From: Candidatus Methanofastidiosum methylothiophilum
GTDB taxonomy: Archaea; Methanobacteriota_B; Thermococci; Methanofastidiosales; Methanofastidiosaceae
Assembly (NCBI GenBank): GCA_001587575.1
Contig: LNJC01000003.1
Location: 2,937 to 66,936 of the forward strand
Length of the DNA stretch: 64,000 bases
Reading direction: 5' to 3'
A program made the position numbers and the translations under genes. Under the pieces are notes generated by a model that saw only the letters and a program-made list of their open reading frames with translations, did no database searches and was not told where the DNA came from. Below are positions 44,103-64,000 of the stretch, in pieces (the first letter of the stretch is position 1; every line of letters begins with the position of its first letter).

Positions 44103-45857
44103 ATGTTTGAAATAAAGGCAAAAGATGGGCTAGGTAGGATAGGAAAACTATCGATAGGTAAAAAAAAAGTTGAAACTCCAACTTTAATGCCTGTAATAAA
44201 TCCAAACAAGATAGTTATTGCCCCAAAAGATATGATTGACTATGGGGCAGAAATGATAATTACTAATTCATATATTATTTATAGAACTCAGAAATTAAGA
44301 GAAGCTGCTCTTGAAAAAGGCGTCCATAAACTGCTTGATTTTAAAGGCATTATAGAAACTGACTCAGGTTCTTTTCAGATGGCGGCGTATGGGGATATAG
44401 AAATAGAAAATAAGGAAATACTTCAATTTCAAAAAGATATTGGAGTTGATATTGGAACATTTCTTGATATACCTACTCACCCTGATGAAACACATAACAA
44501 AGCTCTTTCGGATCTAGAAATTACATTAGAGCGAGCAACAGAAGCCATCGAATTTGATCTAAATTTAAATGGAACAATTCAAGGAGGAACTCACTTAGAT
44601 TTAAGAAAAAAATCTGCTGAAGCTATGACAGATTTACCATTTACTGTTAATCCCATAGGAGGTGTTGTTCCATTAATGATGGAGTATAGATTTAGCGAAC
44701 TGGTAGATATTATTCTTACCGTTAAAGGTAGCCTTTCTCCATCAAGGCCTGTTCATCTTTTTGGTGCTGGTCACCCAATGTTATTATCACTGTCAGTTCT
44801 ATTAGGATGTGACCTTTTTGATTCCGCCGCATATGTTCTATACGCCCAAGATTCAAGATATCTTACAGCTCTTGGCACAAAGAAACTAAATGAAATGAAA
44901 TATTTACCATGTAACTGTCCAGTCTGCAGAAAATATACCGCTCAAGAATTGATTAATCAAAATGATCAAAAGAGATTAGAATTACTTTCAAGTCACAATT
45001 TATATGCAACTTTTGAAGAAATCAAAACGATAAAGGAAGCGATTCATGAAGGAACTTTATTTGAACTAGTTGAAAGCCGAATTAGAGGCCACCCCAGATT
45101 ATTACTTGCATACAGAAGAATCAAAGATTACTACAATGTTCTTGAAGAATACGATCCCTTTACAAAAAGGTCATCTATATTCTATACTGGTGAGGAGTCA
45201 AATTTAAGGCCAATTGTCAAAAGAACTAAGGAAAGGATAATGGAAATAAAATCTAAAAAATATGACGACCATCTATTTTTTGGAAAGTTCCCAAAGGAAC
45301 TAGAATTTACTTATCCTTTTGGTCAGTGTGAAATGGAAGAGGAAAGAAAAAACAAAGGCGATCCTGAACTTAATGATGAGGATATCGTAAAATTAATTGC
45401 AGACTATCAATTTGGCCCTGGAGTCGGAGAAAAGTTATTCCATGACGTTGTTGTTAAGAGGTCAAAGACAGGCATGATACGTTATGTCTTTGATAAGAAT
45501 GGAAATATGCTCGCAACGTTAAGAGCAAGAGATGGCTTATTTACACCAAATATTGAGGGGCTAAAAAGACTAAGAGATATAATCCCCTATCCAAGATACA
45601 GGGTGATAGTGGACGATGAAGCTGTACCTTTCATAAAAGAAGGCGCTAATGTTTTCTCAAAATTTGTGTTGGATATTGATAATTCGCTTAGGGCTTACGA
45701 GGAAGTCCTTATTGTTGACTCAAAAGATTCTATTTTAGGAACTGGGACTTTAATGCTTTCTCCAAAAGAAGTTAAAGCTTTTGAAAGAGGAATGGCAGTT
45801 AGAACAAGATGGGGAATAGAAAAAAATACTACCCAAGAACCCCAGATAGAAGATTAG
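44103..45857 (+). CDS. tgtA: archaeosine tRNA-guanine transglycosylase (ArcTGT) with C-terminal PUA domain
   Basis: It has a TGT catalytic domain (DSGSFQ, LFGAGHP, zinc site CNCPVC...H) and C-terminal C1/C2/PUA domains. Length is 584 aa. Confidence 0.85.
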   Translation: MFEIKAKDGLGRIGKLSIGKKKVETPTLMPVINPNKIVIAPKDMIDYGAEMIITNSYIIYRTQKLREAALEKGVHKLLDFKGIIETDSGSFQMAAYGDIEIENKEILQFQKDIGVDIGTFLDIPTHPDETHNKALSDLEITLERATEAIEFDLNLNGTIQGGTHLDLRKKSAEAMTDLPFTVNPIGGVVPLMMEYRFSELVDIILTVKGSLSPSRPVHLFGAGHPMLLSLSVLLGCDLFDSAAYVLYAQDSRYLTALGTKKLNEMKYLPCNCPVCRKYTAQELINQNDQKRLELLSSHNLYATFEEIKTIKEAIHEGTLFELVESRIRGHPRLLLAYRRIKDYYNVLEEYDPFTKRSSIFYTGEESNLRPIVKRTKERIMEIKSKKYDDHLFFGKFPKELEFTYPFGQCEMEEERKNKGDPELNDEDIVKLIADYQFGPGVGEKLFHDVVVKRSKTGMIRYVFDKNGNMLATLRARDGLFTPNIEGLKRLRDIIPYPRYRVIVDDEAVPFIKEGANVFSKFVLDIDNSLRAYEEVLIVDSKDSILGTGTLMLSPKEVKAFERGMAVRTRWGIEKNTTQEPQIED

Positions 45858-46659
45858 AGCCAATAACAAATCTGAATGTCAAGTAGCCTATTGCAGTTAA
45901 GATTATGCTATGTTTAATTCCAGAAAATAAAGAGTTAGTTGTCATTTTCCCAATCATGAGCCCTGATAAAGCTCCGTGAATAATCAACATGTTCTGGAAT
46001 GTTGTCTTAAATGCTTCTTGATTAATACTTTCTTTAGCTGTTGGAAGTGTAATCCCTGAGAACACTTCTACAAATTGAGTCTGAAGTAAGAATACTACAG
46101 ACAAGAAAACTAGATAAGAAATATAGATAATACCGGTATATTGGCCAAGTTTAGAGGCCTGTTCTTTTTTAAGCCCCCTCATCATTCTAGCACTTTCGGC
46201 TGCAGACTCTAATATCTTGATGATATTCCCACCGGCGTGATGGGCTATAACGATAAGAGATACTGTTCCCTGAACATTTTCACTTTTTACTTTGTCTGCA
46301 AATGACGTCAAAACTTCATCAAAAGATACTCCCCAAGAAATCTTTGAGGCCATTATTTTTATTTCGTCTGTTAGTCTTCCGTAATCATCTTCCTGCGCCA
46401 TCTTTATGGCTTGGGGTAAAGTCATTCCAGCAGCCTGTGAATCTGCCAATGCTCTTAAAAACTCTGGAAACTGATCTTCTATTTCGTTAATCCATGTTTG
46501 TTCTCTCATTTTAATAAAAAGATATGGGCCTACTGCAACTGCTATTCCTGCAATGGCCAATTCACTCATATTCAAAACAAAAAATCCAATTAATCCTAAG
46601 ATTAATCCAGAGGCTATACTGCCAATCATTATGTACAAGTTATAATTTTTTTTTCTCAA
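45829..46659 (-). CDS. TadB-like type II secretion system F-domain membrane protein (archaeal pilus platform protein)
   Basis: The 276-aa protein has an N-terminal TM, a cytoplasmic helical domain and two C-terminal TMs, the T2SSF-domain topology. It is the last gene of the pilus-like operon. Confidence 0.55.
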   Translation of the reverse strand: MRKKNYNLYIMIGSIASGLILGLIGFFVLNMSELAIAGIAVAVGPYLFIKMREQTWINEIEDQFPEFLRALADSQAAGMTLPQAIKMAQEDDYGRLTDEIKIMASKISWGVSFDEVLTSFADKVKSENVQGTVSLIVIAHHAGGNIIKILESAAESARMMRGLKKEQASKLGQYTGIIYISYLVFLSVVFLLQTQFVEVFSGITLPTAKESINQEAFKTTFQNMLIIHGALSGLMIGKMTTNSLFSGIKHSIILTAIGYLTFRFVIGSNLLSGVLG

Positions 46660-46671
46660 ACTTACACCTTT

Positions 46672-47646
46672 TTACCTCTTGGGCGCTACCTGATCTACTG
46701 CTATGATGAATACAGCGTAGCCAACTGGCAGTCCGAAATATACAACTATATTATTAATCAAATTTACTTGTGACATTGGGGTTCCCATAATACCCATTAT
46801 TGTTGTCATGATTATAATAAATACTGGTCCAACAACTAAAGCAGTGACATAAGCTTCTGCAATTAAACCAATAGTTTCTATTGCAGCTTCAGTTTTCATT
46901 CTTTCAACTTCCATTAGCCTATTTCCTTCAATATACAAATACTCTTTTAGATTTCCCCCAGTCCTTATTGTAGCTATCATCTTCCATAAAAGTTCACTAA
47001 ATAATGGAGATGGAGATCTATTGGCCGCCCTCTGAAGTGCTTGAACTAAATCTAGGCCAAAGTTCTCAATATCATTTAATATTTTTTCAGACTCTCTTGA
47101 TACTTCACCATATCTCCTAAATTCTACTAGAGACCAAAAAATAACAGCTGGAGGCACTCCTGTTCCTGCTATTGTTGCCATAGTGTTAACGGCATTAGTC
47201 AATCCAAGATTAATTTTTCTAGATCTTTCACTAGCCTTAAAAGAAGGATAAATCCAGAATATCAAAAAAGTAGAAGATGCTGCTAATAATGAAATAATAA
47301 TGATTAACACTAAATCAAAAGTAATGTCTACAGATCTGCCAGGAGAAATAATTTCATTTACAAAATCTCCTAAAAAAAGGGGCACAGTAATTATAGAAAT
47401 AACTAAAGAAATCATCCCTACAATGATTGTAGTAAGAATCATTGCACTCACATAAGCTCCAAGATTTAGGGGGATGTCACCCTTTCTTAAAGGAACATGA
47501 AGTTCTTCAAAATTTTTTAGCCTTTTATCTACCAAAAAGCCAAATCTTTTATGGGCCATCTTCCCATAGTTCACAAAGAAGCCCCTTTTCTCGTATCTTT
47601 CGATTTCTTGGACTTCAAGGTCCTTTTCTTTTTTTCTGCCTAGCAT
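46672..47646 (-). CDS. TadC-like type II secretion system F-domain membrane protein
   Basis: The 324-aa protein has T2SSF topology, a central soluble domain and flanking TM helices. It lies immediately downstream of the secretion ATPase. Confidence 0.55.
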   Translation of the reverse strand: MLGRKKEKDLEVQEIERYEKRGFFVNYGKMAHKRFGFLVDKRLKNFEELHVPLRKGDIPLNLGAYVSAMILTTIIVGMISLVISIITVPLFLGDFVNEIISPGRSVDITFDLVLIIIISLLAASSTFLIFWIYPSFKASERSRKINLGLTNAVNTMATIAGTGVPPAVIFWSLVEFRRYGEVSRESEKILNDIENFGLDLVQALQRAANRSPSPLFSELLWKMIATIRTGGNLKEYLYIEGNRLMEVERMKTEAAIETIGLIAEAYVTALVVGPVFIIIMTTIMGIMGTPMSQVNLINNIVVYFGLPVGYAVFIIAVDQVAPKR

Positions 47647-47650
47647 AGGC

Positions 47651-49528
47651 TCAACTTTTTATCTTTTTTAGTATAGTATCAGGGTCTCTCATATATTCTT
47701 TTATTACATTCCCTACATCTCTATAATTAACTATATTGTTTTCAGCCATCCAGCTTAGAACAAGAGATCTTCTGTTTATTTCTTCCCAGACTTCTTCTTG
47801 TGTCATGCCTCTTGAAACAGATATTCTCTTTACAATACTACTCTCTTTTGCATCATATATGAATTCGTCAGAACCTGGATCCCATCTAAAAACAGTCTGA
47901 TAGATAGGTTCCCCTTTTTTCAAGTCCATTCCTGTTAGTTCAATTACTTCTTTTACTCTTCTTATCGCTTTTCCTTCGATTTTTGCGTGAGTTAATAAGA
48001 AACAAATATTTAATGATTGAAGAAGTGCTGGAGAAAGATTAATCGGCCTTGTGGTAAGTCTATTGATTAAAGCTTCCATTGAATCAGCATGTATTGTTCC
48101 CATTCCTGGGTGACCTGTGGCCATTCCAGTAAACATTACATTTGCTTCAGCCCCTCTAATTTCACCAACTACTAGATAATCTGGTCTTTGTCTTAAAGAT
48201 GCCCTTAGTAAGTCAAACATGTCCACTTCCCCCTGTTTCTTTCCTTCCGTAGTGACAGCTCCAAATCCAGATCTAGTAACAGCAGGTAGCCAATGCTCTT
48301 GGGGGAGATTTAATTCTTGTGTGTCTTCAATAGTAACTATTTTAGCTTCTGGCGGTAAAAATATGGCAAGTGCATTTAACATAGAAGTTTTACCGGTTGC
48401 TGTCCCCCCTGAAATAATGGTGGAAGCAGTGTATGCATGTTCAAGCGCCAACCACATGTAAGCAAATATTCTGGGAGGGCACGATTTGTATTTTATCAAC
48501 TGTATAGGCGTCATTGGGTCTGTTTTAAATCTTCTAACTGTAAAAGTAGGCCCGTGTTGAGTTACTTCTCTCCCAAATGTAGCCTGAACTCTAGAGTTAT
48601 TTGGAAGTCTTCCGTCTAGTAAAGGCTCTGCAACAGATATATGCCTATTACATCTTTGTGCCATCTTTATAATGATACTGTTTGCATCGTCATCTGATTT
48701 AAAAACTATGTTTGAAGGTAGTGATCCGTACTTTGCATGATAAACATAAATTGGTATTCCCGTCCCATCACAGCTTATATCTTCAATTAAGGGGTCATGA
48801 AAGAAAGGTTCGATTGGGCCAAGCCCTATATAATTTCTTCTTAAATAGTACATTATTTTCTCAAATGAATCTGGAGATAATTTGAGATTTAACTCATCAA
48901 CGACTTCCAAGGCCTTGTTTTCTAAATAATCTACCAATTCGCTCTTTTCTTGAAGACTTTTAAAATCTACTTCAAGTTCTTCCTGGATTATGCCTTGTAT
49001 AGTCATGAGTCTAGTTTTTTCTTGTTCAGAAAGATCAGGCTCTTCAATTAGATAAGTTAATTTTGATATTTTTTCGTCCCATTTTATTCTTGCATATGCA
49101 TATGGTTCAATCAAGGGATGTCTTTCGTCAAAACCTGTATAATCTTGAGTTTTCCACTTCTGAGGAATTACGAGTATGTCTTGATCCTTCATTATAACTC
49201 TTCTTTCTTCCTCTAAAGAAGGGAGTCTTCCTCCTTGTATTGTAACAGGGCCAGATATAACAAAAGTCGCAGCACCCACATTAGATGCAATTTCTTTTGA
49301 GAGATTTTCGCTTGTTTCAGCATTTAATTGTTCAGAGGTATTTTTCTTTTTCTGAGTTAATATGTCTTCAGACGAATGAGAGGTACCTAATGACGCCCCT
49401 TCTTTTTTCAAATATTCAACTTCACTCTTTTTTTTGAGCTTCTCATAATTAGATTTGGGCTCATTATCTAGTAAAACTTCAGATTCCTTTAGTTTCTTTA
49501 TTATTTTGAGAGCTCCTCTTTTTCTCAT
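47651..49528 (-). CDS. type IV pilus/Tad-like secretion ATPase (VirB11/FlaI/TadA family) with a ~150-aa K/E/S-rich N-terminal extension
   Basis: Walker A is GGTATGKTSMLNAL. It also has a Walker B/Asp box (IVTIEDTQEL), His box and an N-terminal GspE_N-like region (GLGPIEPFFHDPLIEDISCDG). Length is 625 aa. Confidence 0.8.
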   Translation of the reverse strand: MRKRGALKIIKKLKESEVLLDNEPKSNYEKLKKKSEVEYLKKEGASLGTSHSSEDILTQKKKNTSEQLNAETSENLSKEIASNVGAATFVISGPVTIQGGRLPSLEEERRVIMKDQDILVIPQKWKTQDYTGFDERHPLIEPYAYARIKWDEKISKLTYLIEEPDLSEQEKTRLMTIQGIIQEELEVDFKSLQEKSELVDYLENKALEVVDELNLKLSPDSFEKIMYYLRRNYIGLGPIEPFFHDPLIEDISCDGTGIPIYVYHAKYGSLPSNIVFKSDDDANSIIIKMAQRCNRHISVAEPLLDGRLPNNSRVQATFGREVTQHGPTFTVRRFKTDPMTPIQLIKYKSCPPRIFAYMWLALEHAYTASTIISGGTATGKTSMLNALAIFLPPEAKIVTIEDTQELNLPQEHWLPAVTRSGFGAVTTEGKKQGEVDMFDLLRASLRQRPDYLVVGEIRGAEANVMFTGMATGHPGMGTIHADSMEALINRLTTRPINLSPALLQSLNICFLLTHAKIEGKAIRRVKEVIELTGMDLKKGEPIYQTVFRWDPGSDEFIYDAKESSIVKRISVSRGMTQEEVWEEINRRSLVLSWMAENNIVNYRDVGNVIKEYMRDPDTILKKIKS

Positions 49529-49597
49529 AATCCATTCCTCTATGACTTGTTTCTATTAATGTATATAAATAGTTATCGGTATTGAAAGGAAAAATAA

Positions 49598-51988
49598 CTA
49601 TTGATACACTTTAAAGTTGTAATATTGACTAGTTTCTTTTTTTATGCCGTCAATTTCAAAGGAATAAGTGAATACTAGTAAATAATCGCCCGGTCTTTTT
49701 ACATTGTATTTATATGTAGAAATATAAGTTGTGAATTCCTCTATGTTTATCCTTCCAGACCTTTCTAAAATTGAAGTATATTGATAGTAAGGAACTCTTT
49801 TTAGTAATACTCTTCCGATGCCATCTTTATGGTAAGGGATTATAGAAATTACCTGAAATCCAACTCCCCCACAATAGAAGATATCTTTTTCTAGTAGTTT
49901 ATTAGATCCATTAACATAGATATATCCCTCATTTTCGTCTATAATCCCATTTTTATTTTCGTCTACTCTAATTTTAATATATTTATTAAATGTATTAATC
50001 TCTTCAAATAATGTTCTAGTGTCACTAAGCCAAACTAACTGTCCTTGTTGAGGATAATAAAGATCATATTCGAAGAAGTTTTGGCTATTTATAGAAGAAA
50101 AACATGCAAGTAGCCCATCATCAGTTATTAAAGTACCGTTAGTATCTTTAGAAAAAGAGGGATTAGAGGATTGAATAATCAATTTATCTGTTAAATCGTT
50201 ATATCCATATTTCCATTTATTAACTACTTGATATTCTCCATCTTTCCATCCATAAAAGAGTCTTGTTTTACCAACAGGGGATTGTTTCATTTCTGACTTC
50301 ATATCGAATAATTTGAAATAAACATGCCATTTTTCATCTTTATTTAAAAAATTGACACTTTCTAGAACTAGAACATAGTTATTCAAAACGAATGAATCTC
50401 CTATCTCCAATAATACATCTTCGCCCAATAGGGTTTCAAATATTATTTGGTATGGATCGACATTCCCTAATCCATCTCTAACTAATCTTATTTCATAAGT
50501 ATTACTGCCTAATTTAAATTCTCCAGAGTCAGGATTTTGAGGGATATCTATTATGACTTCTAAATTATCTGTATTTCTCTTAAGGAAACTAACTAATGTA
50601 GTAGATATACTCCTAACAACGTATTCTTCTCCCCTTAGATTAAACTCAAATCCTTCTTCAATTGGATATGCAGAAACACATGCTAAACTTCCGACTGAAT
50701 CTCTACGACATCTTTGAATATCAAGCAGTATTTCTGAAGTTCCACTCAATTCATAGATCCCTTCAATTTTTTTAGTTAAAGTATTTATTTTGACTTTGTA
50801 TCTAGAACCTTCAGATTCAAAAATACCTTCGTCTAATGATAAATAAACATTAACAATTTCCCACATCTTTAATGAGCTTCCTAATCTTTTTGAACCGTTA
50901 ATATCTTTATCAGATATTGCACTTTCAAGATCATTATGAATAGAAGTGGAGATAATTACAGTATCGCCTGTTACTATTTCATTAGTTCTAATGCCATTTT
51001 CCTTAATTGCAAATACATCTATTAGCCCGTATCTTAATCCTGGAGATTCGTTAGGGTCAAAAGATTGTTTTCTTCTTTCTGTTTCTTGTAAAGAGATCTG
51101 GATATTTAATATTGTATATTTAATATAGTCATCTCTTTGTCCATTGGGAATATATTTAATATCCGTTATTTTAATCAAGTAATTATTTAATAAGAAAACG
51201 TCACCTTCATAAAATCTAGATATGCCATCTAGAGTTATTTGATTTCCACTTTGATTTAAAATTGTTATATAATTCCTTCCATCGTTTGCGATATTCAAAT
51301 AATTGTTCTCTACAAAAGGAGCTCTGTTTTCAATATTGTTCATTCCAGCGTAAGTTATTCTATATTCTCCAAAAGTATATGCCCTATTATTATACACAAT
51401 CCTTGAATTTGAAGAATAGTTCCCTTCTTTGAAGATAATTTCTACATCGCCATGAATCACATATGGATTCAAAGAAGAAGGATCGGATAATTTATTCAAA
51501 GGGGCGACTTCAAACTGGCCTATGTCAGAACTCATTAAATATCTTTTTGGGGAGTCAGATATTTTTCTCGTGTCAACTAATAATTTTCTATTAAAATTTC
51601 CAACTTCAAATACAGAAGGGCCAATGAATAATACATCATCATCAAAGGTGATGTTACTTGATTTAGAAACTTCGATACCCACGTCCAGCTTCGATAAATA
51701 ATAGTTTAACTCTTTTTCTTCGATAGCATAGTGGGCAGAATATATCCCTGCAAATGCATTGTGTATTGAATTAAGATTTCCTGTCCGATATATTTCTTCA
51801 AAAGCATTTTTTGAAGTATCTCTAAATGAACTTTCAATATAATTTGATATGAAAGGGATATCAGAATACCTTATGTCCTCTATTGATTGAGATACTTGAC
51901 GGTAAGAAAGTAGAGAATACTGAATAGCCAGAAGAGAAATTATTACAAGGATTGCAGCAAAGATAAAGAATTGAGATTTATTATTCAT
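49598..51988 (-). CDS. secreted 796-aa protein with class III (prepilin-like) signal peptide
   Basis: The N-terminus is MNNKSQFFIFAAILVIISLLAIQY: a short basic region, KSQ, then a hydrophobic helix, matching the archaeal FlaK/PibD substrate pattern [KR][GAS][QAV]. It overlaps the upstream gene stop by 4 nt. Confidence 0.5.
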   Translation of the reverse strand: MNNKSQFFIFAAILVIISLLAIQYSLLSYRQVSQSIEDIRYSDIPFISNYIESSFRDTSKNAFEEIYRTGNLNSIHNAFAGIYSAHYAIEEKELNYYLSKLDVGIEVSKSSNITFDDDVLFIGPSVFEVGNFNRKLLVDTRKISDSPKRYLMSSDIGQFEVAPLNKLSDPSSLNPYVIHGDVEIIFKEGNYSSNSRIVYNNRAYTFGEYRITYAGMNNIENRAPFVENNYLNIANDGRNYITILNQSGNQITLDGISRFYEGDVFLLNNYLIKITDIKYIPNGQRDDYIKYTILNIQISLQETERRKQSFDPNESPGLRYGLIDVFAIKENGIRTNEIVTGDTVIISTSIHNDLESAISDKDINGSKRLGSSLKMWEIVNVYLSLDEGIFESEGSRYKVKINTLTKKIEGIYELSGTSEILLDIQRCRRDSVGSLACVSAYPIEEGFEFNLRGEEYVVRSISTTLVSFLKRNTDNLEVIIDIPQNPDSGEFKLGSNTYEIRLVRDGLGNVDPYQIIFETLLGEDVLLEIGDSFVLNNYVLVLESVNFLNKDEKWHVYFKLFDMKSEMKQSPVGKTRLFYGWKDGEYQVVNKWKYGYNDLTDKLIIQSSNPSFSKDTNGTLITDDGLLACFSSINSQNFFEYDLYYPQQGQLVWLSDTRTLFEEINTFNKYIKIRVDENKNGIIDENEGYIYVNGSNKLLEKDIFYCGGVGFQVISIIPYHKDGIGRVLLKRVPYYQYTSILERSGRINIEEFTTYISTYKYNVKRPGDYLLVFTYSFEIDGIKKETSQYYNFKVYQ

Positions 51989-53942: not shown

Positions 53943-54064
53943 TGAATTTGCAGCAATATATACTACATAAAGAAAAGCGATAGTAAATATACCAAGGGCT
54001 ATTATATTATCTATTATATCTTGTCCTTTTCTAGACCGATTAAATTTAACGAATAATTTTATTA

Positions 54065-57000: not shown

Positions 57001-58414
57001 CGAGATCTAAGAAACCCTGTTTTGCAAGTCTATTAATATCGGCTGTTGGGTCAATAATAATCTCAATGGGTTCATTTACTCTAATTATATTTACTGGATC
57101 GACTTCAAGACGTTTTCTAAAATGCCAATCTGGAGGATTCCCGAGTTGTCCCGGATCCCACCATGCACATACATTAAATTTATTATCTACAATAGAATGG
57201 ATATCCACAGGAATAGACGTTGTAACTATTTTACCTGCCCCCCAAGTTGAAACTATGAGAGAAGGATTATTATTAAGATACGGCCCATATGGTGTCTCCC
57301 TTAGTAAGATTTCATTTGCAGGTCCATCGACAAAAGGCTCAACTATAGTTCCTTGTGCAGAAAAATAGCTTCCAGATATTTCATATGATTCAATATTATT
57401 AGTTATATTATGCTGTTTTGAAACTCCAATAGTATCATATTGTCCAGAATCAAAGGTAACGTTAACTGGAAGGAAGTCATATTTCTTTTTTTGATTGGGG
57501 TTTTGAGTGAACATTATCAAAGAACCCCCACTTTTTATATAGTTGTTTAAGATATCTTTAGTAGGATTTTGGGATAGAGAGTCAATCATATCGGATGTAG
57601 AGGGAATGAAAATATTAGTATAATAATTAATATACCTACTATCAATCCCATCTTTTTTTGAGTTAACAATATAGTAATTTGAAGGATAGACAGAATATTC
57701 TTCAACGTTGTCTACTACTTTATAATATTCAGACCAATAGGATTTTGGGTATTCTAAGAGAAAACATGTTTTTGCTAAGGATTCGGGAGGTTTGCCTGCA
57801 TCTCCGATTACAGCTGATTTAAAAGTTGGCGTCAAATAAACTATGTATTCCTGACCTCTGCCGGCCACCATTGGTTCAATTTTATATAAATAGAAATCCC
57901 CTATTATGTTCTTGTCTTTTAATTCTATAATTTGTGGATTTGAATATAGATTATAATCTCCATCAATGTAAAATCTTGTATTTAATTTTATTTCCTTTGT
58001 ATCTTTGATTGCTCCAGTTTTATCTTTAGTGGATAAGGACAATGACGTTGGAACTTGGTTATTGTTAGAAATAATACAGATTATTTTAAAAAATTCATTT
58101 TCCCCTACAAACTGACGTTCACTTTGGTTTATTAATCCACCGTCTTTAAGGGGTATAGTCATGTTTGTTTGGACAAGAGTTCTTTCAATCCAAGCAATTT
58201 CGTTATGGGCTACAGTATTTTCAATATAAGTAGCTATATTTTGAAAACTTTTCTCATCGATACGCTTAGAATAAGTTTGAGAAAACTCTTCTGACGTCCT
58301 CCAAAAAAATACGGTCGTTGCAAGTAAAATAGCAATTAGCATAATGGCCATAACTACATGCATTTGAGATTTTTTAGAGTGAATAAAATTAATGTTGAAT
58401 ATACTCATTTTCAT
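54065..58414 (-). CDS. giant (1449 aa) secreted protein with class III signal peptide and integrin-like FG-GAP beta-propeller repeats
   Basis: The N-terminus is MKMSIFNINFIHSKKSQMHVVMAIMLIAILLATTVFF (KSQ plus hydrophobic helix). There are multiple Ca-binding-loop-like DxDxDG repeats embedded in FG-GAP-like blades (DLNKDGVLEIVVGG, DIDNDGYDDIIVV, DINRDGYLDIIWTSVDGNVYII, DIDNDGKSEVIFMTHDGRVISL). Confidence 0.6.
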   Translation of the reverse strand: MKMSIFNINFIHSKKSQMHVVMAIMLIAILLATTVFFWRTSEEFSQTYSKRIDEKSFQNIATYIENTVAHNEIAWIERTLVQTNMTIPLKDGGLINQSERQFVGENEFFKIICIISNNNQVPTSLSLSTKDKTGAIKDTKEIKLNTRFYIDGDYNLYSNPQIIELKDKNIIGDFYLYKIEPMVAGRGQEYIVYLTPTFKSAVIGDAGKPPESLAKTCFLLEYPKSYWSEYYKVVDNVEEYSVYPSNYYIVNSKKDGIDSRYINYYTNIFIPSTSDMIDSLSQNPTKDILNNYIKSGGSLIMFTQNPNQKKKYDFLPVNVTFDSGQYDTIGVSKQHNITNNIESYEISGSYFSAQGTIVEPFVDGPANEILLRETPYGPYLNNNPSLIVSTWGAGKIVTTSIPVDIHSIVDNKFNVCAWWDPGQLGNPPDWHFRKRLEVDPVNIIRVNEPIEIIIDPTADINRLAKQGFLDLERATLDFDSIRVVELIGGNCSQNIEIPSQTYPYRPNMQAAGYRNSPLEFHEHTIFFELDNPVNILLEMEVPFGSQYKDESPSINTDFRVFINEVPVTEVIEGGNTPVAGYWNPFDGGQTNGPESFSCTLPAKYFIKGDNKIRLSMETPNNKVLTWYQNVLFRLYEKTPSGNNLFFREYPPIYVYFSMGATPSNNQSRTIPGTKRIYDIYYDIEENGKKSIPSYRLTDNSLSEKWSVQVDNPEFFPPWNDGDNSILSNEFPVLLNNSSPSTADVNNNSIIDVVIGMRNGNVRAINGTDGATIWEKNVVNNLPVVSSSNTRYLYAPTAISSPAVCDLNKDGVLEIVVGGGNIMAEFDRRLNQRTIIISTTSSNVSVLDAATGNILWKFPIDGAMLSAPAIADIDNDGYDDIIVVDTYFTNLQYVQNQSSLVNTNITIKNNIYAYSGKTRQRLFKLSGTQISVSPNLFAYRLPNSPYTPQIMMPSTSPAIEDINRDGYLDIIWTSVDGNVYIIDGVNWNNRVLRNFTIPNITPNMPLGYIVSSPVIAQTDYLKNYKDVLVSVIVNDRVRSYKIDGSTGELTQLNIQSNTNDLISGHPVVHSPNGFHLRGPQMVVPGGQYLMIQHLDLTHQVRGRITQSSSLTSSYATPAIVEVNNYSTHQKKYDAFFFDCVIGAEDGKVYALAYRDTTQGDDNGDTSLPPSDDNKLNKLWEYPTGSPIRGSVAVDDIDNDGKSEVIFMTHDGRVISLNVGYHYTRWNFSRHDLYGTANTLTNLTPINYTFSEPEAIELGDINDPYDDKFRLVSNFTFGASNNFQAYISEKWIKIDTNRNNLFSDERTLNEKDITKININTYEGRPIETNLNVESIYGDIMDNNFIITFIDRGMIRLFNNIMAYTSAPTKNIQIEEGIWVNLDIPNTIGTREYIIQGLGDKILIYDPKNADVEYIKELRGMSIYGTISSISKNKYVVITSYGAYLSPNPQEG

Positions 58415-58423: not shown

Positions 58424-61400
58424 TCAATCTATTAATATTTCATGGCCACAAGCATATACAATGATATTTTGCTGCAATTTCCTTGCATCGGTAACATATA
58501 CCTCATTTGGATGCATATTTGTTCCCATAGAAGTTCTATTATTCTTGTATCTATCCAAATCCAAAGTTGTTACTATAATGGCAGATTCAAGATTATTGAA
58601 TATATTCCTTCTTTCTTTTACCATAAGAACTGGCCCACCCGTTGCTTGGGGCACAAAAATAGTTCCTCCTGTAACCCTAAAAGGTCCGCTTGGAACAGGT
58701 ATCTCATTTGGATCCCCTTTTACTTCATATATTTTATCAAATGTCTTTAAGTTAAAAATAATATTGTTATTTGTCCATCCAGTATCTCTTATGTCAAAAT
58801 ATCCGTGTGTGCACATTGCGAATTCGTTTGGAAGCCTAAAAGTAATTGGATTTTCTAGGGATGATTTTTGTAAATTATACTTATTGCCTATGTTTAAATT
58901 AAGATTAAGATCATTAAGCCAGTCTAATCCCTGGAAAGGCCTTCCACGGGGCCAAGTTGCTGCCTGGCCATCAAGTCCAAAAAAGAATTCTCCTTCAGGC
59001 ATGTCCCCATGATCCCACTCTATTCTATTTCCATATTTATCTATATAAAGAGCTCCTGACCATTGCTGGGTTGTAATCGTATTTGGATTTCCTGGAGGGC
59101 CTCTGCTGTTTTGCCATGCAGTGTATATTACAGGAAGATTTCTATGCACATCATTTAGTTCTCCATAGATTTTATAGCTCTCTCCAATTGGTTCAGTTGA
59201 TACCCTACCTATCGATAGATCTGAGCCTTGGAATGTTGGAAGCCATGAATACTTCCCGTAATAATATGTATTCGGAGGAGAATTATATCTTTGTTTAGAA
59301 GTAATAATATATGAATCATAAGTAGACTCCCAATTATTCTCGTTTATTGCAGTAATAAAAATTTTGTTATTAGTATCGCCTGCATAGTAAGGAATAGTAA
59401 ATGTTATGTTATTGAAGCTATAAACATATTGTGTTCCTTCTGCACAGACACCTGAAGTATTGACATTTATCGTACCGGAACCAGGTAAGTATTCATAACT
59501 TTCATCTCTTATAAGAACTAAGCTACCTGGAGATTGCATAGCATATCTTATTTTTCCAATTTTCCCAATTGATATTTCTACTTCTTTAATTTTGTCTTTG
59601 CATTGATCTATAGTAAAATTCATAGAAACTGTAGCGCCTTCTTGAGCCCTGTGTTCCATAGAGAGGTTCTTAATAGTTGGGGCTAGTGATCTTGTGATAT
59701 AGTACCAATCACTAGTCTGGGATCTATTGCCAAGTTTATCCGATGCTTCTACCCTAACCTCAATCTTATACGTATTTTCCCAAGGCCATATGGGAGTATA
59801 AGATACTCTATAATCATTTAGGCCTAACGGATCTATTTTAATGTTATTAGTTACTTCCATGTTAATAACACTTGCATTTGAAGAAGATTTCCCAATAATA
59901 AACATTCTAATTGAATTTCTATCTACGCCTGCATATGAGTCTGTGATGTCTAGAGTGATTGGAGCTGTAGTAGATACTATATCATTCTGCCCAGGGGATA
60001 GATTACTAAAGATAGGGCCAGTCTTTTTAGCCCTTAATATGTTAGATTGCAAACTTGAACCTTCGTTTCCGGCAAGGTCTCTCATTATTATTTCTATACC
60101 ATATAGATTACCATCAATAACATTAGAAGGTATATCGATTTCATCCATTATTGTATGTGTTCCACCGCCAGTTACATAATTAAGATTGGGAGTAGTAATG
60201 ACTCTTGGAGCTGTTTCTAAAATTGTATTCGAGCCATCACGTAATCTAATTATGTATGATGCCGGATATTTTTCAGTATATGTAAAAGTGATATATGCTT
60301 TACCTCCTGCCCTTACAGTTTGAGGATTAACAGACGTAGGGGCATTAATAGTAATATTTGGATTAGAATTATCATAAATTACCCACCTAGTCGCATAAGT
60401 ATCGTTCTGATCACTACCTGTGGGCTCTCCGTCTACTTTTACCCTGATAATATTTAATCCTACAGTCAAAGGATTTACATTAAAACTAAAACTTGGATTT
60501 GGAGATAAAGAAAAAGCGGGGGCCACTGAATTCACGTCCCATGAAGCTGAACTTGCTGGAGTAGAGCCGATAAAGTTTATAGATGACTGATTAGTAAATG
60601 TCAAGAAGGTTTGAGGTTGACTTATTGTTAAATTAGGCCCAGGATTATTGAAATAAAAACTCCAATTATTTACTAAGAAGTTTCCTAATGTATCTTCAAT
60701 ATATACTGTTGAAGTATGAGTTCCATCGTTTATATCGGCCGCGGGGATATGCGTAATACTGTTAGTATTACTTGAAATTTTATAGTCTCCATCTAAATAA
60801 AGCCTCGATCCTAGGATACCCGCACCTAAATCATCATAATTTACAAATATTACTGGTGTACTGTTAAGGGCTTGTGTCTCTGGAGATTTACTTAAAATCA
60901 AAGGAGGGGCCCTATCTCTTAGAATTTCAATTTTCGTTAAAAGTGTATTTTGGGCTCGATCGTATGTAACAAAAGAATAATTATAATCTCCCTCTGAAAG
61001 CGGCAAATAGTAATAATAATTATGAGGATCTGTCCAGATTGGATTATTTACAAATTGTAAAACCTGAGTCTGATACATTGACTTATCAATTCCACTTAAA
61101 GCATCTGATGCAGAATAATCTATTCTTGTATAGGGGCTAATTGTAGGTGAAGTTATAATAGGAGTTATTACAGAACTAGATGGAAGAACTGCATCCTTTT
61201 TAATTTCAAATCTAAAGATAGAAGCAGGATTATTTGTATAAAAACTAGAGCGTTCTATAAAGTTACCCTGCTCATCAGTTGATTGGAATCTAACTTGATA
61301 AATTCCAGCCAGATACTCTCCTGGAACTGGCCATTCTGTAGAAAAGGTATTGTCTTGTGCCAATCTATCTGGTGTAATACCATTATCAAATAAGAATTTT

Positions 61401-63121
61401 CCCCCCACAAGGACTCCATCGGCTTCCCTATAAATATTTACCCCCGCATGGATAATACTGCTTACATCAGTTATGTTAGAATAAAAGACAATTTTCCCGC
61501 CATCTCCATTTATCCATATGGAAGGAAGTTGGATTCCAGATGAGTTCTGATCATCTGTGATTATGTTAGGATTTAGTATTCTAGGGGGGTCAAGATCTGA
61601 TAGAACTGAAGGATGAGGATAATAGTTATCGTTATCTGGGTCAGGCTCTGCTGAGGCACTATCAATTGAGAATTGCCCGAAGGTTATAAGCCCTCTAGAG
61701 TAGTCCACGCCTTTAAATGATAACCTATTAAGGGCTAAGAAATTTGTCAGATCGCCCCTATAAGAATTAAGTTTTGGTAATAAATTAGGATCATTTGTAG
61801 CTCCTGAACCTACAATTATAAGCGAGAAGTCTCTATAGTTTAATATATCGGGATTGCCATCAATTGCAGCTATTTCTGCGAACCTAGGATCTAAAGTTCC
61901 ATATTCTGAAGGGCTTCTTCTTTCAGTAGGGTCAAGAAGCCACTTAATCGGGTACATCTGAACATTAATAGTTGTTCCAGGATAGTTAATTCCGTTTAAT
62001 CCAACAGGGGAATCAACACTTCCATACAAAACGAAATAATTACAGTGATAATTACTGTCAGAAGTAGCATCAAATGCATCCATAGTATCGAATAAAAGAT
62101 TATCAAAATTCTCTGTATTGTACATAACTAAGGCAATTGGAATAGATTCAAAAATATCTTGTTTTGTTAATTTATACATTGGAATATTGAAAAAATTATT
62201 AGCATCATAATAAGATTCAAAATCATTTTTTGGAGCGGCTATGAATTCGCTCATATTTACAATCCATGGCCCTAAATTTTTAGCAAAGTTTAATTTATAC
62301 AAATCGGTTTTAGTATAAATTTGCCCTTCATTTTCTTTCATCACATATGAGGTAAGGTTAACACGTATGTACAACTTCAAATCATTTACCCAATCAGATT
62401 TAGGAAGTCTAACTGCATATCTTCCTTGAGAATTAGTTCTAGTGATGGCTATTGTTTCAAGTTTATCATTAATAAAAACGATTTCGGCATTTGCAAGAGG
62501 GGGGTCAATTGTATTCCCAGTTGTGTTCATTGTGGGGCTAGTTTCATTTTGTCCTTCAGTGTTATCATAGACATAACCCTGTAGGGTCCATGTATCCCCC
62601 GTAACTGGAATCTCTGGAGAAAGGCTTAGGAGTACATCATTTGCCCCCTCATTTTTTATGTATATTCTATATTGTCCTGCATTTAAAACTTCAAATCTTG
62701 AAATAATGTCAATTTCTCCACCATACTGAAGTTTAACATTAATTGCTCTCCCAGTAAAATAAGTATCCATTCCCATCTGTTGAGGTGCTGATTCTATTCC
62801 TGGTGCGTCCATGAAAAATATAATTGTATCGTTATTTTGGTCAGTTAGTATACTTCCCTTATCAAAATTAATATCAATATAACGTTGTGCTCCTTCTCCC
62901 TCAAATCTAACTTCTCTAATTTTTTTATCAAGTTCTAACAGAGCGTTTTGCATTGAATTAATCCTTGAAACGTCCCTTGACCTCTCAATCTGTGGTCCTG
63001 CAAATCGATACGCGGCAAAAACGGCGGCCACGGTAATAGCTAAAATTAACATTACTGTAATTACTTCTACTTGAGCCTTTTTTGATACTGGCCCTCTTTT
63101 TCTGATTATTTTATACCCCAT
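58424..63121 (-). CDS. giant (1565 aa) secreted protein with class III signal peptide, carboxypeptidase-regulatory-like and multiple Ig-like/beta-sandwich regions
   Basis: The N-terminus is MGYKIIRKRGPVSKKAQVEVITVMLILAITVAAVFAAY (KAQ plus hydrophobic helix). A CarboxypepD_reg-like segment reads AEIVFINDKLETIAITRTNSQGRYAVRLP. The rest is beta-rich, repetitive, and N/T/S-rich, with many N-x-S/T sequons. Confidence 0.6.
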   Translation of the reverse strand: MGYKIIRKRGPVSKKAQVEVITVMLILAITVAAVFAAYRFAGPQIERSRDVSRINSMQNALLELDKKIREVRFEGEGAQRYIDINFDKGSILTDQNNDTIIFFMDAPGIESAPQQMGMDTYFTGRAINVKLQYGGEIDIISRFEVLNAGQYRIYIKNEGANDVLLSLSPEIPVTGDTWTLQGYVYDNTEGQNETSPTMNTTGNTIDPPLANAEIVFINDKLETIAITRTNSQGRYAVRLPKSDWVNDLKLYIRVNLTSYVMKENEGQIYTKTDLYKLNFAKNLGPWIVNMSEFIAAPKNDFESYYDANNFFNIPMYKLTKQDIFESIPIALVMYNTENFDNLLFDTMDAFDATSDSNYHCNYFVLYGSVDSPVGLNGINYPGTTINVQMYPIKWLLDPTERRSPSEYGTLDPRFAEIAAIDGNPDILNYRDFSLIIVGSGATNDPNLLPKLNSYRGDLTNFLALNRLSFKGVDYSRGLITFGQFSIDSASAEPDPDNDNYYPHPSVLSDLDPPRILNPNIITDDQNSSGIQLPSIWINGDGGKIVFYSNITDVSSIIHAGVNIYREADGVLVGGKFLFDNGITPDRLAQDNTFSTEWPVPGEYLAGIYQVRFQSTDEQGNFIERSSFYTNNPASIFRFEIKKDAVLPSSSVITPIITSPTISPYTRIDYSASDALSGIDKSMYQTQVLQFVNNPIWTDPHNYYYYLPLSEGDYNYSFVTYDRAQNTLLTKIEILRDRAPPLILSKSPETQALNSTPVIFVNYDDLGAGILGSRLYLDGDYKISSNTNSITHIPAADINDGTHTSTVYIEDTLGNFLVNNWSFYFNNPGPNLTISQPQTFLTFTNQSSINFIGSTPASSASWDVNSVAPAFSLSPNPSFSFNVNPLTVGLNIIRVKVDGEPTGSDQNDTYATRWVIYDNSNPNITINAPTSVNPQTVRAGGKAYITFTYTEKYPASYIIRLRDGSNTILETAPRVITTPNLNYVTGGGTHTIMDEIDIPSNVIDGNLYGIEIIMRDLAGNEGSSLQSNILRAKKTGPIFSNLSPGQNDIVSTTAPITLDITDSYAGVDRNSIRMFIIGKSSSNASVINMEVTNNIKIDPLGLNDYRVSYTPIWPWENTYKIEVRVEASDKLGNRSQTSDWYYITRSLAPTIKNLSMEHRAQEGATVSMNFTIDQCKDKIKEVEISIGKIGKIRYAMQSPGSLVLIRDESYEYLPGSGTINVNTSGVCAEGTQYVYSFNNITFTIPYYAGDTNNKIFITAINENNWESTYDSYIITSKQRYNSPPNTYYYGKYSWLPTFQGSDLSIGRVSTEPIGESYKIYGELNDVHRNLPVIYTAWQNSRGPPGNPNTITTQQWSGALYIDKYGNRIEWDHGDMPEGEFFFGLDGQAATWPRGRPFQGLDWLNDLNLNLNIGNKYNLQKSSLENPITFRLPNEFAMCTHGYFDIRDTGWTNNNIIFNLKTFDKIYEVKGDPNEIPVPSGPFRVTGGTIFVPQATGGPVLMVKERRNIFNNLESAIIVTTLDLDRYKNNRTSMGTNMHPNEVYVTDARKLQQNIIVYACGHEILID

Positions 63122-63136
63122 TGGAATACCTTTGAG

Positions 63137-63158
63137 TATATAATAAAAAATAATAAAA
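63137..63158 (-). promoter_or_regulatory. possible internal TATA-box promoter upstream of the 1565-aa gene
   Basis: The minus strand reads TTTTATTATTTTTTATTATATA in the 79-nt gap between the membrane-protein gene and the 1565-aa gene, about 15-35 nt upstream of the ATG. Confidence 0.3.
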
Positions 63159-63200
63159 TATTATTTAATCTTTACTCTTTGATTTGCGAATACCTCAAAC

Positions 63201-63971
63201 CTACATTACTATTTTCTTTCTTGAAAACTCTGTCCCCATTACTATAGCAAGAGCTGAAGAGAATATGAGTATCAGTGAAAGCATAAGGTCAAGGAATATG
63301 CCTAGATTTGGTATAGGAAGCCCAGGAAGTCCTTTGAAGACTAGGAAGAGCACACCTGATAGTAACCATAATCCTCCAACAATATAGAGTACACCGTTAT
63401 CACTCCCCTTTGAACCAGAAGGAGTTCTTGCTTTCGTTCCAAAGAGTATCGGCGGTATCCCAGTAATCATCATTACAATGTAAAATGCAATCCCCATGAA
63501 ACTAGATTTTAGAATATTAAATACAGAGGAAATTGGATTATTTTGAGGAAGCATTCCCATATTATTGAACAAAAAGAATATAGCAAACGCAAGCCACACA
63601 AAACCCAATAAGTAAAGTGTTATTGGGGCAAAGATTGATCCTCCTTTTTTAGTTGGCTCTCCTTTCAGGTCTTTCATTAACTCTTTTGTGTCGATTCCGA
63701 GCTCCTGTGCTTCTCTTAAAATTTCTTCCATTGAAGGCTCTTCGCCAATTGGCTCATCTAGACTAAATCCAGAAGACTTTTTTGAGAAGATTGTATCAAT
63801 TCTTTCATCGGGCAATACTTGATTTACTTTTTTTAAGAAATCACTCTCTGAGAATTCATCTAGAGTTTCGTCGATGATTTTTTCATGTTTTTCTATAGTT
63901 GTGCCTTTTGTTTCTTCAATTGATTTTTTTGCATCTTCAGTTATTTTTCTTTCAAAGATCTCTTCAGGCAC
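63201..63971 (-). CDS. membrane protein with ~110-aa acidic cytoplasmic N-domain and 4 TM helices; first gene of the pilus-like operon, probably 5'-truncated by the window end
   Basis: The track ORF starts at GTG 63971, but the reading frame stays open to position 64000. The TM region reads GGSIFAPITLYLLGFVWLAFAIFFLF... Confidence 0.4.
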   Translation of the reverse strand: MPEEIFERKITEDAKKSIEETKGTTIEKHEKIIDETLDEFSESDFLKKVNQVLPDERIDTIFSKKSSGFSLDEPIGEEPSMEEILREAQELGIDTKELMKDLKGEPTKKGGSIFAPITLYLLGFVWLAFAIFFLFNNMGMLPQNNPISSVFNILKSSFMGIAFYIVMMITGIPPILFGTKARTPSGSKGSDNGVLYIVGGLWLLSGVLFLVFKGLPGLPIPNLGIFLDLMLSLILIFSSALAIVMGTEFSRKKIVM

Positions 63972-64000
63972 ATAAGATACTCTTCTTGGCTGTTCCTGTT

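Follow-up and report, generated by a model that had tools for sequence, protein, structure and literature searches.

A compact minus-strand gene cluster in the uncultured methanogen Candidatus Methanofastidiosum methylothiophilum probably encodes an archaeal type IV pilus-like system of the PilB3/GspE2-type lineage, in which five enlarged pilins would form the tip complex. The cluster lies at positions 45829–64000 of the window, the 64,000-nt stretch of contig LNJC01000003.1 that was analyzed, and, based on ORF calls, encodes a membrane protein, five secreted proteins (1565, 1449, ~310, 384, and 796 aa, in order), a PilB/FlaI-family ATPase, and a platform in two halves. Successive genes are separated by 79, 9, ~0, −7, −4, 69, 4, and 12 nt, with overlapping stop and start codons linking genes of the cluster, confirming the nine consecutive, tightly spaced genes described in a first-pass annotation. 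The gene order and sizes given there also hold, except that the first gene is incomplete, with its start outside the window.

That first gene, for the membrane protein, is represented by its 3′ part (63201–64000, minus strand; ORF 63201–63971+). In another assembly of the same contig the full-length protein is 402 aa (L003:8713–9921) and is predicted to have an acidic, coiled-coil-like cytoplasmic N-terminal half and four C-terminal transmembrane segments; it has no Pfam or NCBIfam match, and its membership in the pilus system is uncertain. The adjoining intergenic region (63122–63200, minus strand) is a possible promoter, judged from its sequence motif, as the TATA-like element previously noted before the 1565-aa gene is present in the 79-nt gap (~63144), 23 nt ahead of the ATG, against a background of one such motif per 1255 nt on the minus strand. 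Another TATA-like element occurs 41 nt upstream of the ATPase ATG.

Comparison with related genomes revealed synteny of the cluster in at least eight Ca. Methanofastidiosum genomes or loci. Across these loci the machinery is 80–93% identical and the secreted proteins 42–91% identical, the pattern expected for surface-exposed parts. A locus from the sister lineage (L021) has an ATPase with 64% identity and a matching set of secreted proteins in unchanged order (1363, 1001, 293, and 359+ aa). Each Methanofastidiosum locus keeps the secreted set together with the machinery and in constant order, and in the sister lineage the set is present in rearranged form.

The largest secreted protein (1565 aa; 58424–63121, minus strand), which is 100% identical to the NCBI entry ‘hypothetical protein APG12_00304’ of the same organism, has a predicted class III signal with MGYKIIRKRGPVSKKA before the cleavage site and QVEVITVMLILAITVAAV after it. 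Among 17 orthologues the leader is variable and the sequence invariant from KAQ on. Confident AlphaFold2 models cover aa 1–170 and 510–1290. The first of these regions contains a pilin module (aa 14–166; 62624–63082, minus strand), identified by both the structural model and a profile search, with a ~60-residue α1 helix (aa 14–73) and a β domain (aa 79–166; pLDDT mostly 74–88 over aa 51–170). A profile of aa 1–500 searched against 1.84 billion representatives matched 373 proteins at E ≤ 1e-3, and, among the matches listed, most were proteins of 155–250 aa aligned end to end with query aa 13–165; the N-termini of typical small matches are those of canonical archaeal pilins (MKG.../KKAQVWVET-type). 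The Pfam family DUF7289 is a borderline match to the 1565-aa protein (25.3 bits; cut-off, 27), and several of the small relatives meet or approach its threshold. On this profile similarity, aa 13–165 share homology with a large archaeal family of stand-alone pilin-like proteins. The second modeled region is predicted to hold approximately eight Ig-like/MG-like β-sandwich domains (aa ~510–1290; 59252–61594, minus strand), all-β with pLDDT mostly 80–97 (AlphaFold2, 17 orthologues). Foldseek matched this array to multi-Ig/MG arrays in the PDB, such as α-2-macroglobulins and GhpA, and weak Pfam matches were obtained to Big_13, Big_3_3, and DUF4625.

The second giant protein (1449 aa; 54065–58414, minus strand) has a class III-like N-terminus in which HSKKS precedes QMHVVMAIMLIAILLATTVFF, with S or A at position −1 in orthologues and no significant similarity to the pilin family past the N-terminal helix. 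Pfam places an FG-GAP/integrin-α-like β-propeller at aa ~737–1230 (54725–56206, minus strand; FG-GAP_3 1.6e-13, FG-GAP 2.4e-13, with matches to PQQ_2 and other β-propeller families), which includes four DxDxDG calcium-site-like motifs (aa 805, 871, 960, and 1194). Both giants are multi-domain and β-rich, as had been proposed.

The three remaining secreted proteins are smaller. For the ~308–310-aa pilin-like protein (53133–54065, minus strand; RSRKG preceding QDIIDNIIALGIFTIAFLYVVY), the gene covers ORF 53133–53942 or beyond, and the mechanical call was 269 aa because no ATG, GTG, or TTG occurs upstream of the KGQ motif. The 40 codons upstream of this call are conserved at the protein level across eight orthologous loci, five of which, the more distant ones, have an ATG at the start position; a length of ~308–310 aa with a non-canonical start is therefore correct, which upholds the earlier size claim. 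The start is probably an ATA at 54062 (or 54065), 7 nt after GGAGG. This protein matches Pfam DUF7287 weakly (E 0.0025–0.009), as does the 384-aa protein (51985–53139, minus strand; MLMNNKS preceding VMRTFEAIIAAVIMILGVSF) to DUF7288 (E 0.021). The 796-aa protein (49598–51988, minus strand; MNNKS preceding QFFIFAAILVIISLLAI) has no significant Pfam or NCBIfam match. Orthologues of both the 384- and 796-aa proteins have S, G, or A at position −1. Across the four proteins other than the 1565-aa giant, pilin likeness is confined to the N-terminal helix and weak matches to DUF7266, DUF7287, and DUF7288.

With five of five subunits bulky, and with the module common to small pilins lying within the 1565-aa protein itself, the ATPase and platform might instead build a short stalk, or merely position giant adhesins beyond the S-layer, along the lines of the bindosome of Sulfolobus or the pseudopilus of type II secretion. 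A separate major pilin would then be unneeded, and neither the cluster nor the 64-kb window contains a small major pilin gene; the bindosome also provides a case of class III signals on surface proteins that do not form filaments (10.64898/2026.04.22.720090). However, the genes for major pilins usually lie outside the locus in the characterized systems of clades 1 and 2 (PMC4858521), and their absence here therefore says little. Scores for the BasE (199.7; cut-off, 1000) and BasF (22.6; cut-off, 1300) models fall far short of the thresholds and Pfam detected no substrate-binding-protein domains in the cluster, making such a display system rather unlikely.

As the first-pass annotation had it, all five secreted proteins carry an N-terminal [K/R]-[G/A/S] followed by ~20 hydrophobic residues, with tripeptides KAQ, KSQ, KGQ, KSV, and KSQ in gene order. 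A six-frame scan of the 64 kb for this motif returned 11 matches, comprising these five N-termini, one Sec-like N-terminus belonging to a 1655-aa surface protein (the sole other confident gene with the motif at its N-terminus), and five that fall in internal membrane segments or outside confident genes. In orthologues of the five proteins, position −1 is exclusively G, A, or S and position −2 is K or R, save for one 1449-aa orthologue (L008; M at −2, R at −3), and the hydrophobic stretch is near-invariant while the preceding leader drifts. Of the five window proteins, three have S at position −1 and four have Q at +1, and charged or aromatic residues occur at +2/+3; the strict FlaFind pattern would be expected to reject all five, due to the S at −1 in three and the residues at +2/+3. 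For the 1565-aa protein, TIGR02537 scored 19.4 bits (cut-off, 20) and Pfam Pilin_N 11.4 bits (E 0.64; cut-off, 25.2), and these general pilin-N models did not match the other four. The earlier observation that the window lacks a prepilin peptidase was borne out, as the 64 kb contains no GxGD motif flanked by hydrophobic sequence and no Peptidase_A24 match among its multi-TM ORFs.

The sub-threshold or silent pilin-N models, the S at −1 in place of the more usual G or A, and the possible separate promoter ahead of the ATPase would suit ordinary uncleaved signal anchors, with the five proteins as type II membrane-anchored passengers beside pilus machinery. This reading is improbable given that the five proteins accompany the machinery in a fixed order at every Methanofastidiosum locus and recur, rearranged, in the sister lineage, that positions −1 and −2 are so restricted despite a drifting leader, that the 1565-aa N-terminus is homologous to stand-alone pilin-like proteins over 150 residues, well beyond a transmembrane helix, and that overlapping stop and start codons join the genes.

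The machinery itself is that of a type IV filament assembly operon, as first proposed, with a 625-aa PilB/GspE2-type secretion ATPase (47651–49528, minus strand; Pfam T2SSE 4.5e-32) and two T2SSF proteins. The ATPase has intact catalytic motifs (Walker A GGTATGKT, Walker B LVVGE, and His box), a ~150-aa N-terminal extension, and a PilB3_C-like C-terminus (Pfam PilB3_C 4.4e-4), and among PDB structures scored highest against A. fulgidus GspE (2OAP; 367 bits), followed by FlaI (262 bits) and CpaF (139 bits). The 324-aa platform protein (46672–47646, minus strand; Pfam T2SSF 4e-16) corresponds to the N-terminal half of FlaJ/PilC (TadC-like; ArlJ model positions 15–248 of 555) and the 276-aa protein (45829–46659, minus strand; Pfam T2SSF 2.7e-16) to the C-terminal half (TadB-like; positions 291–542). 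Another assembly gives a length of 266 aa for the latter, and the 3′ end of its gene overlaps the convergent tgtA by 29 nt.

The initial ‘Tad-like’ label, which would imply an Epd/Tad-type pilus (clade 1, ‘system 1’), is very unlikely to apply. It would fit an organism of the class Thermococci, the two T2SSF genes, and the prevalence of Q at +1, which EppA substrates reportedly share. However, CpaF scored far below GspE, the TadA model (TIGR03819) reached 148 of a required 373, relatives with ~50% identity to the ATPase bear PilB3_N and PilB3_C domains, and the locus is without EppA, a ~70-aa Flp/Epd-type pilin, or a DUF2341 protein. System 1 is defined by two platform genes (10.64898/2026.04.22.720090), but many clade 2 loci have two tadC genes (Makarova 2016), and the order of ATPase, N-terminal half, and C-terminal half is that of a plain pilB-pilC fission. 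Nor is the split platform unusual, as had been supposed, with two T2SSF genes in 6/6 relatives with visible downstream genes and splits known for archaeal pilus clades 1 and 2 (PMC4858521 section 11; PMC6668835). By sequence affinity, the bit scores and the PilB3 domains of relatives assign the ATPase to clade 2, a euryarchaeal group in Makarova et al. 2016, rather than to the Epd/Tad clade. An archaellum (motility) locus is highly improbable, although some sources label relatives ‘flagellar protein FlaI’. The FlaI model, the top NCBIfam match, scored 395 bits under a cut-off of 550, ArlJ models fell far below theirs, and Pfam and NCBIfam searches found no archaellin or ArlF/G/H/C/D/E/X genes.

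From this combination of genes, we infer signal cleavage, filament assembly, a tip location, and an adhesive role for the five proteins in a clade 2 pilus. [quoted passage not shown] The hexameric ATPase and two-protein platform would then pull the subunits from the membrane via their hydrophobic N-terminal helices and polymerize them. The five proteins would act as minor (low-abundance) pilins making the priming/tip complex, and the major (shaft) pilin would be expected as a small stand-alone gene elsewhere. All five may have been enlarged in the Methanofastidiosum lineage by modules grafted onto a pilin stem, which in the 1565-aa protein would be a carboxypeptidase-regulatory-like domain, a ~250-aa region, the Ig-like domains, and a C-terminal domain, and in the 1449-aa protein the calcium-type propeller; the adhesive head displayed at the tip would therefore be very large and would probably let the organism attach, in anaerobic digesters, to flocs, to surfaces, or to partner cells. 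By analogy, a 170-kDa subunit is hard to fit other than at the tip, and a large adhesive tip formed by the five enlarged subunits is most likely.

No description of large domains fused to a pilin module at the ~1500-aa size was found in the publications consulted. Large pilus partners as such are better described than first assumed, with large adhesin-like proteins already published from archaeal pilus loci (PMC4858521; bioRxiv 10.64898/2026.04.22.720090), and modular pilins and tip complexes have precedent (PMC8179133). Clade 2 of Makarova corresponds to ‘system 2’ of the more recent classification (10.64898/2026.04.22.720090), and the Methanofastidiosum cluster belongs to a type of system already known, set apart by the unusual size of its modular pilins.

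The nine minus-strand genes of the cluster (45829–64000) were confirmed as described in the first-pass annotation, with successive gaps of 79, 9, ~0, −7, −4, 69, 4, and 12 nt, and all presently carry a ‘hypothetical’ annotation. In order, the cluster encodes a membrane protein, five secreted proteins (1565, 1449, ~310, 384, and 796 aa), an ATPase, and two platform proteins. The first gene runs past the end of the window, but another assembly of the same contig encodes a 402-aa protein at this position, with a divergent GTPase gene upstream. At the opposite end, the TadB-like gene shares a 29-nt 3′ overlap (45829–45857) with the convergent archaeosine tRNA-guanine transglycosylase gene (tgtA, 44103–45857), present in all Methanofastidiosum loci examined, and the cluster is thus bounded on both sides. 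TATA-like matches (background of 1 per ~1255 nt) occur in two intergenic gaps, at 63144 (gap 63122–63200) and at 49569 (gap 49529–49597), suggesting that the cluster may consist of two or three transcription units (membrane protein; five pilin-like genes; machinery). Synteny of the entire cluster extends over at least eight Methanofastidiosum loci, with identities of 80–93% for the machinery and 42–91% for the secreted proteins, the lower values fitting parts that are exposed and evolve quickly.

The 625-aa protein is a T2SSE ATPase (Pfam, 4.5e-32) with intact Walker A, Walker B-like, and His boxes, an N-terminal extension, and a PilB3_C-like C-terminus (weak PilB3_C match), encoded by a gene that a dozen Methanofastidiosum MAGs (class Thermococci in GTDB) share at 88–90% identity. 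Against solved structures, the ATPase scored highest with A. fulgidus GspE (2OAP, 367 bits), followed by FlaI (262 bits) and CpaF (139 bits), and relatives at about 50% identity possess both the PilB3_N and PilB3_C domains. Under published clade definitions, which assign 2OAP and PilB3 to clade 2 (PMC4858521 sections 7 and 11), the ATPase falls, by these structure scores and domains, within euryarchaeal clade 2 (‘system 2’, PilB3/PilB4/GspE2 type) and outside both the Epd/Tad clade 1 and the archaellum clade. The initial label of ‘Tad-like’ found no support, as the TadA model (TIGR03819) reached 148 bits against a cut-off of 373, CpaF only 139 bits, and GspE was nearest. The two downstream proteins (324 and 276 aa) each possess one T2SSF domain, aligned to positions 15–248 and 291–542 of the 555-position ArlJ model, and by these alignments together make up an ordinary archaeal platform split in two. 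The split had been put forward as a special feature of the locus, but two T2SSF genes occurred in all six non-Methanofastidiosum relatives with visible downstream genes, and in this branch of PilB3-type ATPases a platform divided over two genes is the norm. A single-gene platform, given as a feature of ‘system 2’ in a 2026 preprint (10.64898/2026.04.22.720090), was found neither here nor in those six relatives; it is not truly defining, because two tadC genes are found at many clade 2 loci (Makarova 2016, PMC4858521 section 11). Platform splitting has been explained as gene fission (Denise et al. 2019, PMC6668835).

When all six frames of the window were scanned for [K/R]-[G/A/S] preceding a 20-residue hydrophobic stretch, 11 matches were obtained, five of which were the N-termini of the five consecutive secreted proteins; one was the Sec-like N-terminus of a 1655-aa surface protein, and the other five were internal membrane segments or lay outside confident genes. 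Among orthologues, K/R is kept at position −2 of the predicted cleavage site (single exception: the 1449-aa orthologue of the Methanofastidiosum locus L008, where −2 is M and −3 is R), only G, A, and S occur at position −1, and Q occupies position +1 except in the 384-aa protein, which has V/Y there. The hydrophobic stretch hardly varies, while the leader ahead of the motif drifts. This pattern is that expected of a processed class III signal, which is predicted for all five proteins. Family models were matched weakly: TIGR02537 scored 19.4 (threshold, 20) and DUF7289 scored 25.3 against the 1565-aa protein (threshold, 27; some orthologues pass), while DUF7287 and DUF7288 matched the 310- and 384-aa proteins (E around 0.01) and DUF7266 matched the sister-lineage counterpart of the 1449-aa protein. 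N-glycosylation sequon density in the five proteins (10–16 per 1000 aa) is higher than in most cytoplasmic proteins, but equals the value predicted by their N/S/T-rich composition and is therefore compositional support only. No class III peptidase (FlaK/PibD/EppA, GxGD) was detected in a search of the 64-kb window, in agreement with the first-pass annotation.

The 1565-aa protein, 100% identical to an NCBI entry from the same organism (‘hypothetical protein APG12_00304’, Ca. Methanofastidiosum methylothiophilum), is conserved unevenly among 17 orthologues (first 250 residues, 74–85%; remainder, 33–65%). A profile of residues 1–500 searched against 1.84 billion representative proteins yielded 373 matches (E ≤ 1e-3). 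Among the matches listed, beyond orthologues, most were proteins of 155–250 aa aligned end-to-end with residues 13–165, and large proteins (450–1210 aa) were few. The small matches have canonical archaeal pilin N-termini (MKGVDPLIA.., KKAQVWVETVIYTLI.., RKGVSPLVS..), and several reach or approach the DUF7289 threshold. AlphaFold2 predicted a helix (residues 14–73) packed on a beta domain (79–166; pLDDT mostly 74–88) and, within residues 501–1565 (mean pLDDT 75), ~8 Ig-like beta-sandwich domains at ~510–1290 (pLDDT 80–97), a region that matches multi-Ig/MG arrays in the PDB, with GhpA among the Foldseek matches. Foldseek of the N-terminal model against the PDB gave generic Ig-like matches only (TM-scores 0.1–0.15), uninformative on the pilin fold, and phmmer of both giant proteins against PDB sequences gave no match. 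By eye, a stretch at aa ~250–500 (window 59900–62370; ..DFSLIIVGSGATND..; AlphaFold pLDDT below 35) resembles an alpha/beta (ThuA- or vWA-like) domain. Judged from its homologues and models, the 1565-aa protein is a modular pilin, in which a pilin module homologous to stand-alone pilins is followed by unrelated domains.

In the 1449-aa protein, a candidate modular pilin, Pfam places an FG-GAP beta-propeller (1e-13) over a region that has four DxDxDG motifs; by eye, a stretch at aa ~1–440 (window 57100–58400; ..SGGSLIMFTQNP..) also resembles an alpha/beta (ThuA- or vWA-like) domain. With the pilin family this protein shares only the N-terminal helix. Profile-profile comparison of the five N-terminal regions likewise confined similarity to the hydrophobic helix; the five proteins are not recent paralogues. 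One database search with a concatenated query (310-, 384-, and 796-aa proteins plus the N-terminal part of the 1449-aa protein) returned no match. For the ~310-aa gene, the mechanical ORF is only 269 aa because no ATG, GTG, or TTG lies ahead of the KGQ motif. The residues upstream (..K[RK]GQ|DIIDNI[IV]A[LM]GIFT[IV]AFLY) are conserved across eight orthologous loci, which bears out the length first proposed, with a non-canonical start. Five of the eight loci have ATG at the expected start, while the window and three close relatives (L006, L007, and L009) have ATA, 7 nt after GGAGG, where the distant orthologues have ATG. In this region (54060–54074, minus strand) the upstream stop codon abuts the ATA, which may represent rare ATA initiation or coupled re-initiation, keeping the subunit scarce.

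Outside of Methanofastidiosum, the sister-lineage locus L021 (ATPase 64% identical) encodes the ATPase and two T2SSF proteins, then proteins of 1363, 1001, 293, and 359+ aa in the same order, with N-termini KAQ|SEVI, RGQ|SEVI, SKG|I, and NKA|Y; the 1363-aa protein has DUF7289, Big_1, and Invasin_D3 domains. In the sister-lineage loci L021, L025, and L026, the genes immediately ahead of the ATPase encode a ~200-aa membrane protein and a 177-aa zinc-ribbon (DZR) protein, which differ from the 402-aa coiled-coil membrane protein heading the Methanofastidiosum cluster. Four distant relatives (L023, L024, L027, and L028) have small pilin-like genes (110–630 aa) around the same machinery, and a 198-aa protein of L023 matches the N-terminal module of the 1565-aa protein (E 1e-11). 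The L023 contig (1.17 Mb) also encodes a 1634-aa giant after its pilin-like genes (16208–21112), with a Sec-type signal (..LLFITSIAEA|QE) and not a class III signal, such that giant partners of this machinery occur both fused and unfused to pilin modules. Because the distant relatives have small pilin-like genes and the L023 giant is of Sec type, enlargement with pilin fusion is, on this comparison, specific to Methanofastidiosum and its sister lineage. A one-to-one pairing of the five proteins with the five small pilin-like genes of L023 was rejected: only the 1565-aa/198-aa pair was significant, three of the other four followed gene order without significance (in a set of nine sequences, E 6e-4 to 0.05), and the 384-aa protein paired with a partner other than the one its position predicts.

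Elsewhere in the window, a 256-aa MinD/ParA-family ATPase gene is followed by an overlapping 72-aa membrane ORF (6524–7502, minus strand); clade 1 and 2 pili have been proposed to have a stand-alone FleN/MinD ATPase as their partner (Makarova 2016, PMC4858521). The 1655-aa surface protein with the Sec-like signal (DUF11/CARDB/CarboxypepD_reg; 1394–6361, minus strand), a short (165-aa) exosortase/archaeosortase-family ORF (7626–8123, plus strand), and an S_layer_C family protein (12594–13478, minus strand) together look like a cell-envelope neighbourhood.

Overall, the locus is best read as an archaeal type IV filament operon of clade 2 whose conserved set of five minor pilin-like proteins has grown to form what would be a giant tip or priming complex with an adhesive role. 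The peptidase and major pilin would be encoded elsewhere, as is common (PMC4858521). Analogues for such a complex are S. sanguinis PilB and PilC, and PilY1 with its minor pilins (PMC8179133). The likeliest rival, though still improbable, is a display stalk with no filament; here, unlike in the haloarchaeal clade 2 pili, the link to a filament is a prediction. Plain signal anchors would sit with the TIGR02537 score under threshold, but less readily with predicted cleavage-site residues kept across orthologues. An Epd/Tad system shares the two platform genes; membership was nevertheless rejected on the TadA and CpaF scores. An archaellum was rejected (FlaI NCBIfam model, 395 against a cut-off of 550; ArlJ models, 50–79 against 400–570), with no ArlF/G/H, ArlCDE or ArlX, or archaellins present. 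A bindosome (Bas) was also rejected (BasE, 199.7 against 1000; BasF, 22.6 against 1300; no SBP domains).

A bolder reading can be offered only tentatively: the five proteins (about 4500 residues, roughly 500 kDa) might make up one giant adhesive tip organelle, or else a filament-less stalk pushing giant adhesins through the S-layer, and either way might be the largest pilin-fused proteins described. If so, they would be about twice the size of the largest modular pilin (860 aa) in a 2021 bacterial survey (PMC8179133), a whole minor-pilin set could expand together in one lineage, and the role could possibly be to keep a hydrogen- and methyl-dependent methanogen attached to its syntrophic partners. 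Methanofastidiosum is an uncultured methanogen active in anaerobic digesters that needs its neighbours' hydrogen and methylated thiols (PMC7382037), a dependence that would make a dedicated attachment organelle relevant to its ecology.

The large partners had at first been considered poorly described, but publications already cover archaeal pilus loci that have split platforms, multiple minor pilins, and large partners resembling adhesins (PMC4858521; 10.64898/2026.04.22.720090); the new element here is the size of the proteins and the fusion of giant bodies to pilin modules. Literature searches on the DUF numbers and on Methanofastidiosum pili found no earlier description of the locus or of pili in Methanofastidiosum. 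The cluster clearly illustrates archaeal modular pilins at the size extreme, with a 150-residue module that otherwise occurs by itself as a ~160-aa protein bearing another 1400 residues, and it tests how large a cargo the type IV assembly machine lifts from the membrane and presents. Further, it provides a concrete reading of DUF7289, and tentatively of DUF7287, DUF7288, and DUF7266, as pilin-like modules.

Among known systems, clade 2 pili (Haloferax volcanii PilB3-PilC3 and PilB4 loci; A. fulgidus GspE, 2OAP) resemble the cluster in the ATPase, which is nearest this group, and in having pilin-like genes clustered with the machinery; clade 2 loci frequently include large adhesin-like proteins, often leave the major pilins to be encoded elsewhere, and in many cases have two tadC-like genes (PMC4858521 section 11). 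The cluster differs in the enlargement of every one of its five pilin-like proteins, two of them reaching ~1500 aa, in the fusion of a pilin module to an adhesin-like body, and in that the haloarchaeal DUF7266/7287/7288/7289 models are matched weakly. Clade 2 is further marked by a signature minor pilin (arCOG02911) and a PilA-family major pilin, and on this point the cluster gave only those weak DUF matches. The M. maripaludis Epd and bacterial Tad systems (clade 1, ‘system 1’) share a split platform (TadC-like and TadB-like), several minor pilins with large surface proteins, frequent glutamine at +1, and a host related to Thermococci, but the ATPase here is not CpaF/TadA-like and the locus is without a FlaH/TadZ-like second ATPase; no short Flp/EpdE-type pilin, dedicated EppA peptidase, or DUF2341 large protein was found in the cluster or window. 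Crenarchaeal TFF subsystem 4G (arCOG05616) and Aureispira GhpA similarly place long Ig-like chains in type IV filament loci, though the published descriptions treat these as adhesin-like proteins in their own right and not as fusions to pilins, and the ATPase clade and host lineage differ. With the Pseudomonas/Neisseria PilY1/PilC tip adhesin and FimU-PilVWX, the cluster shares a beta-propeller with calcium-type sites and about four to five minor pilins encoded together, for which a priming/tip role is proposed; PilY1, however, is no pilin and has a Sec signal, whereas the propeller protein here has its own class III-like N-terminus, and the likeness is offered as an analogy. Bacterial modular pilins (S. 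sanguinis PilB with a vWA module and PilC with a lectin module; ETEC CofB; GspK) likewise graft functional modules onto a small N-terminal pilin module, modules presumed to be tip-exposed for adhesion (PMC8179133), while the proteins here have an archaeal DUF7289-like pilin module in place of the N-methylation motif, lengths of 1565 and 1449 aa, and bodies built of a multi-Ig array and a beta-propeller.
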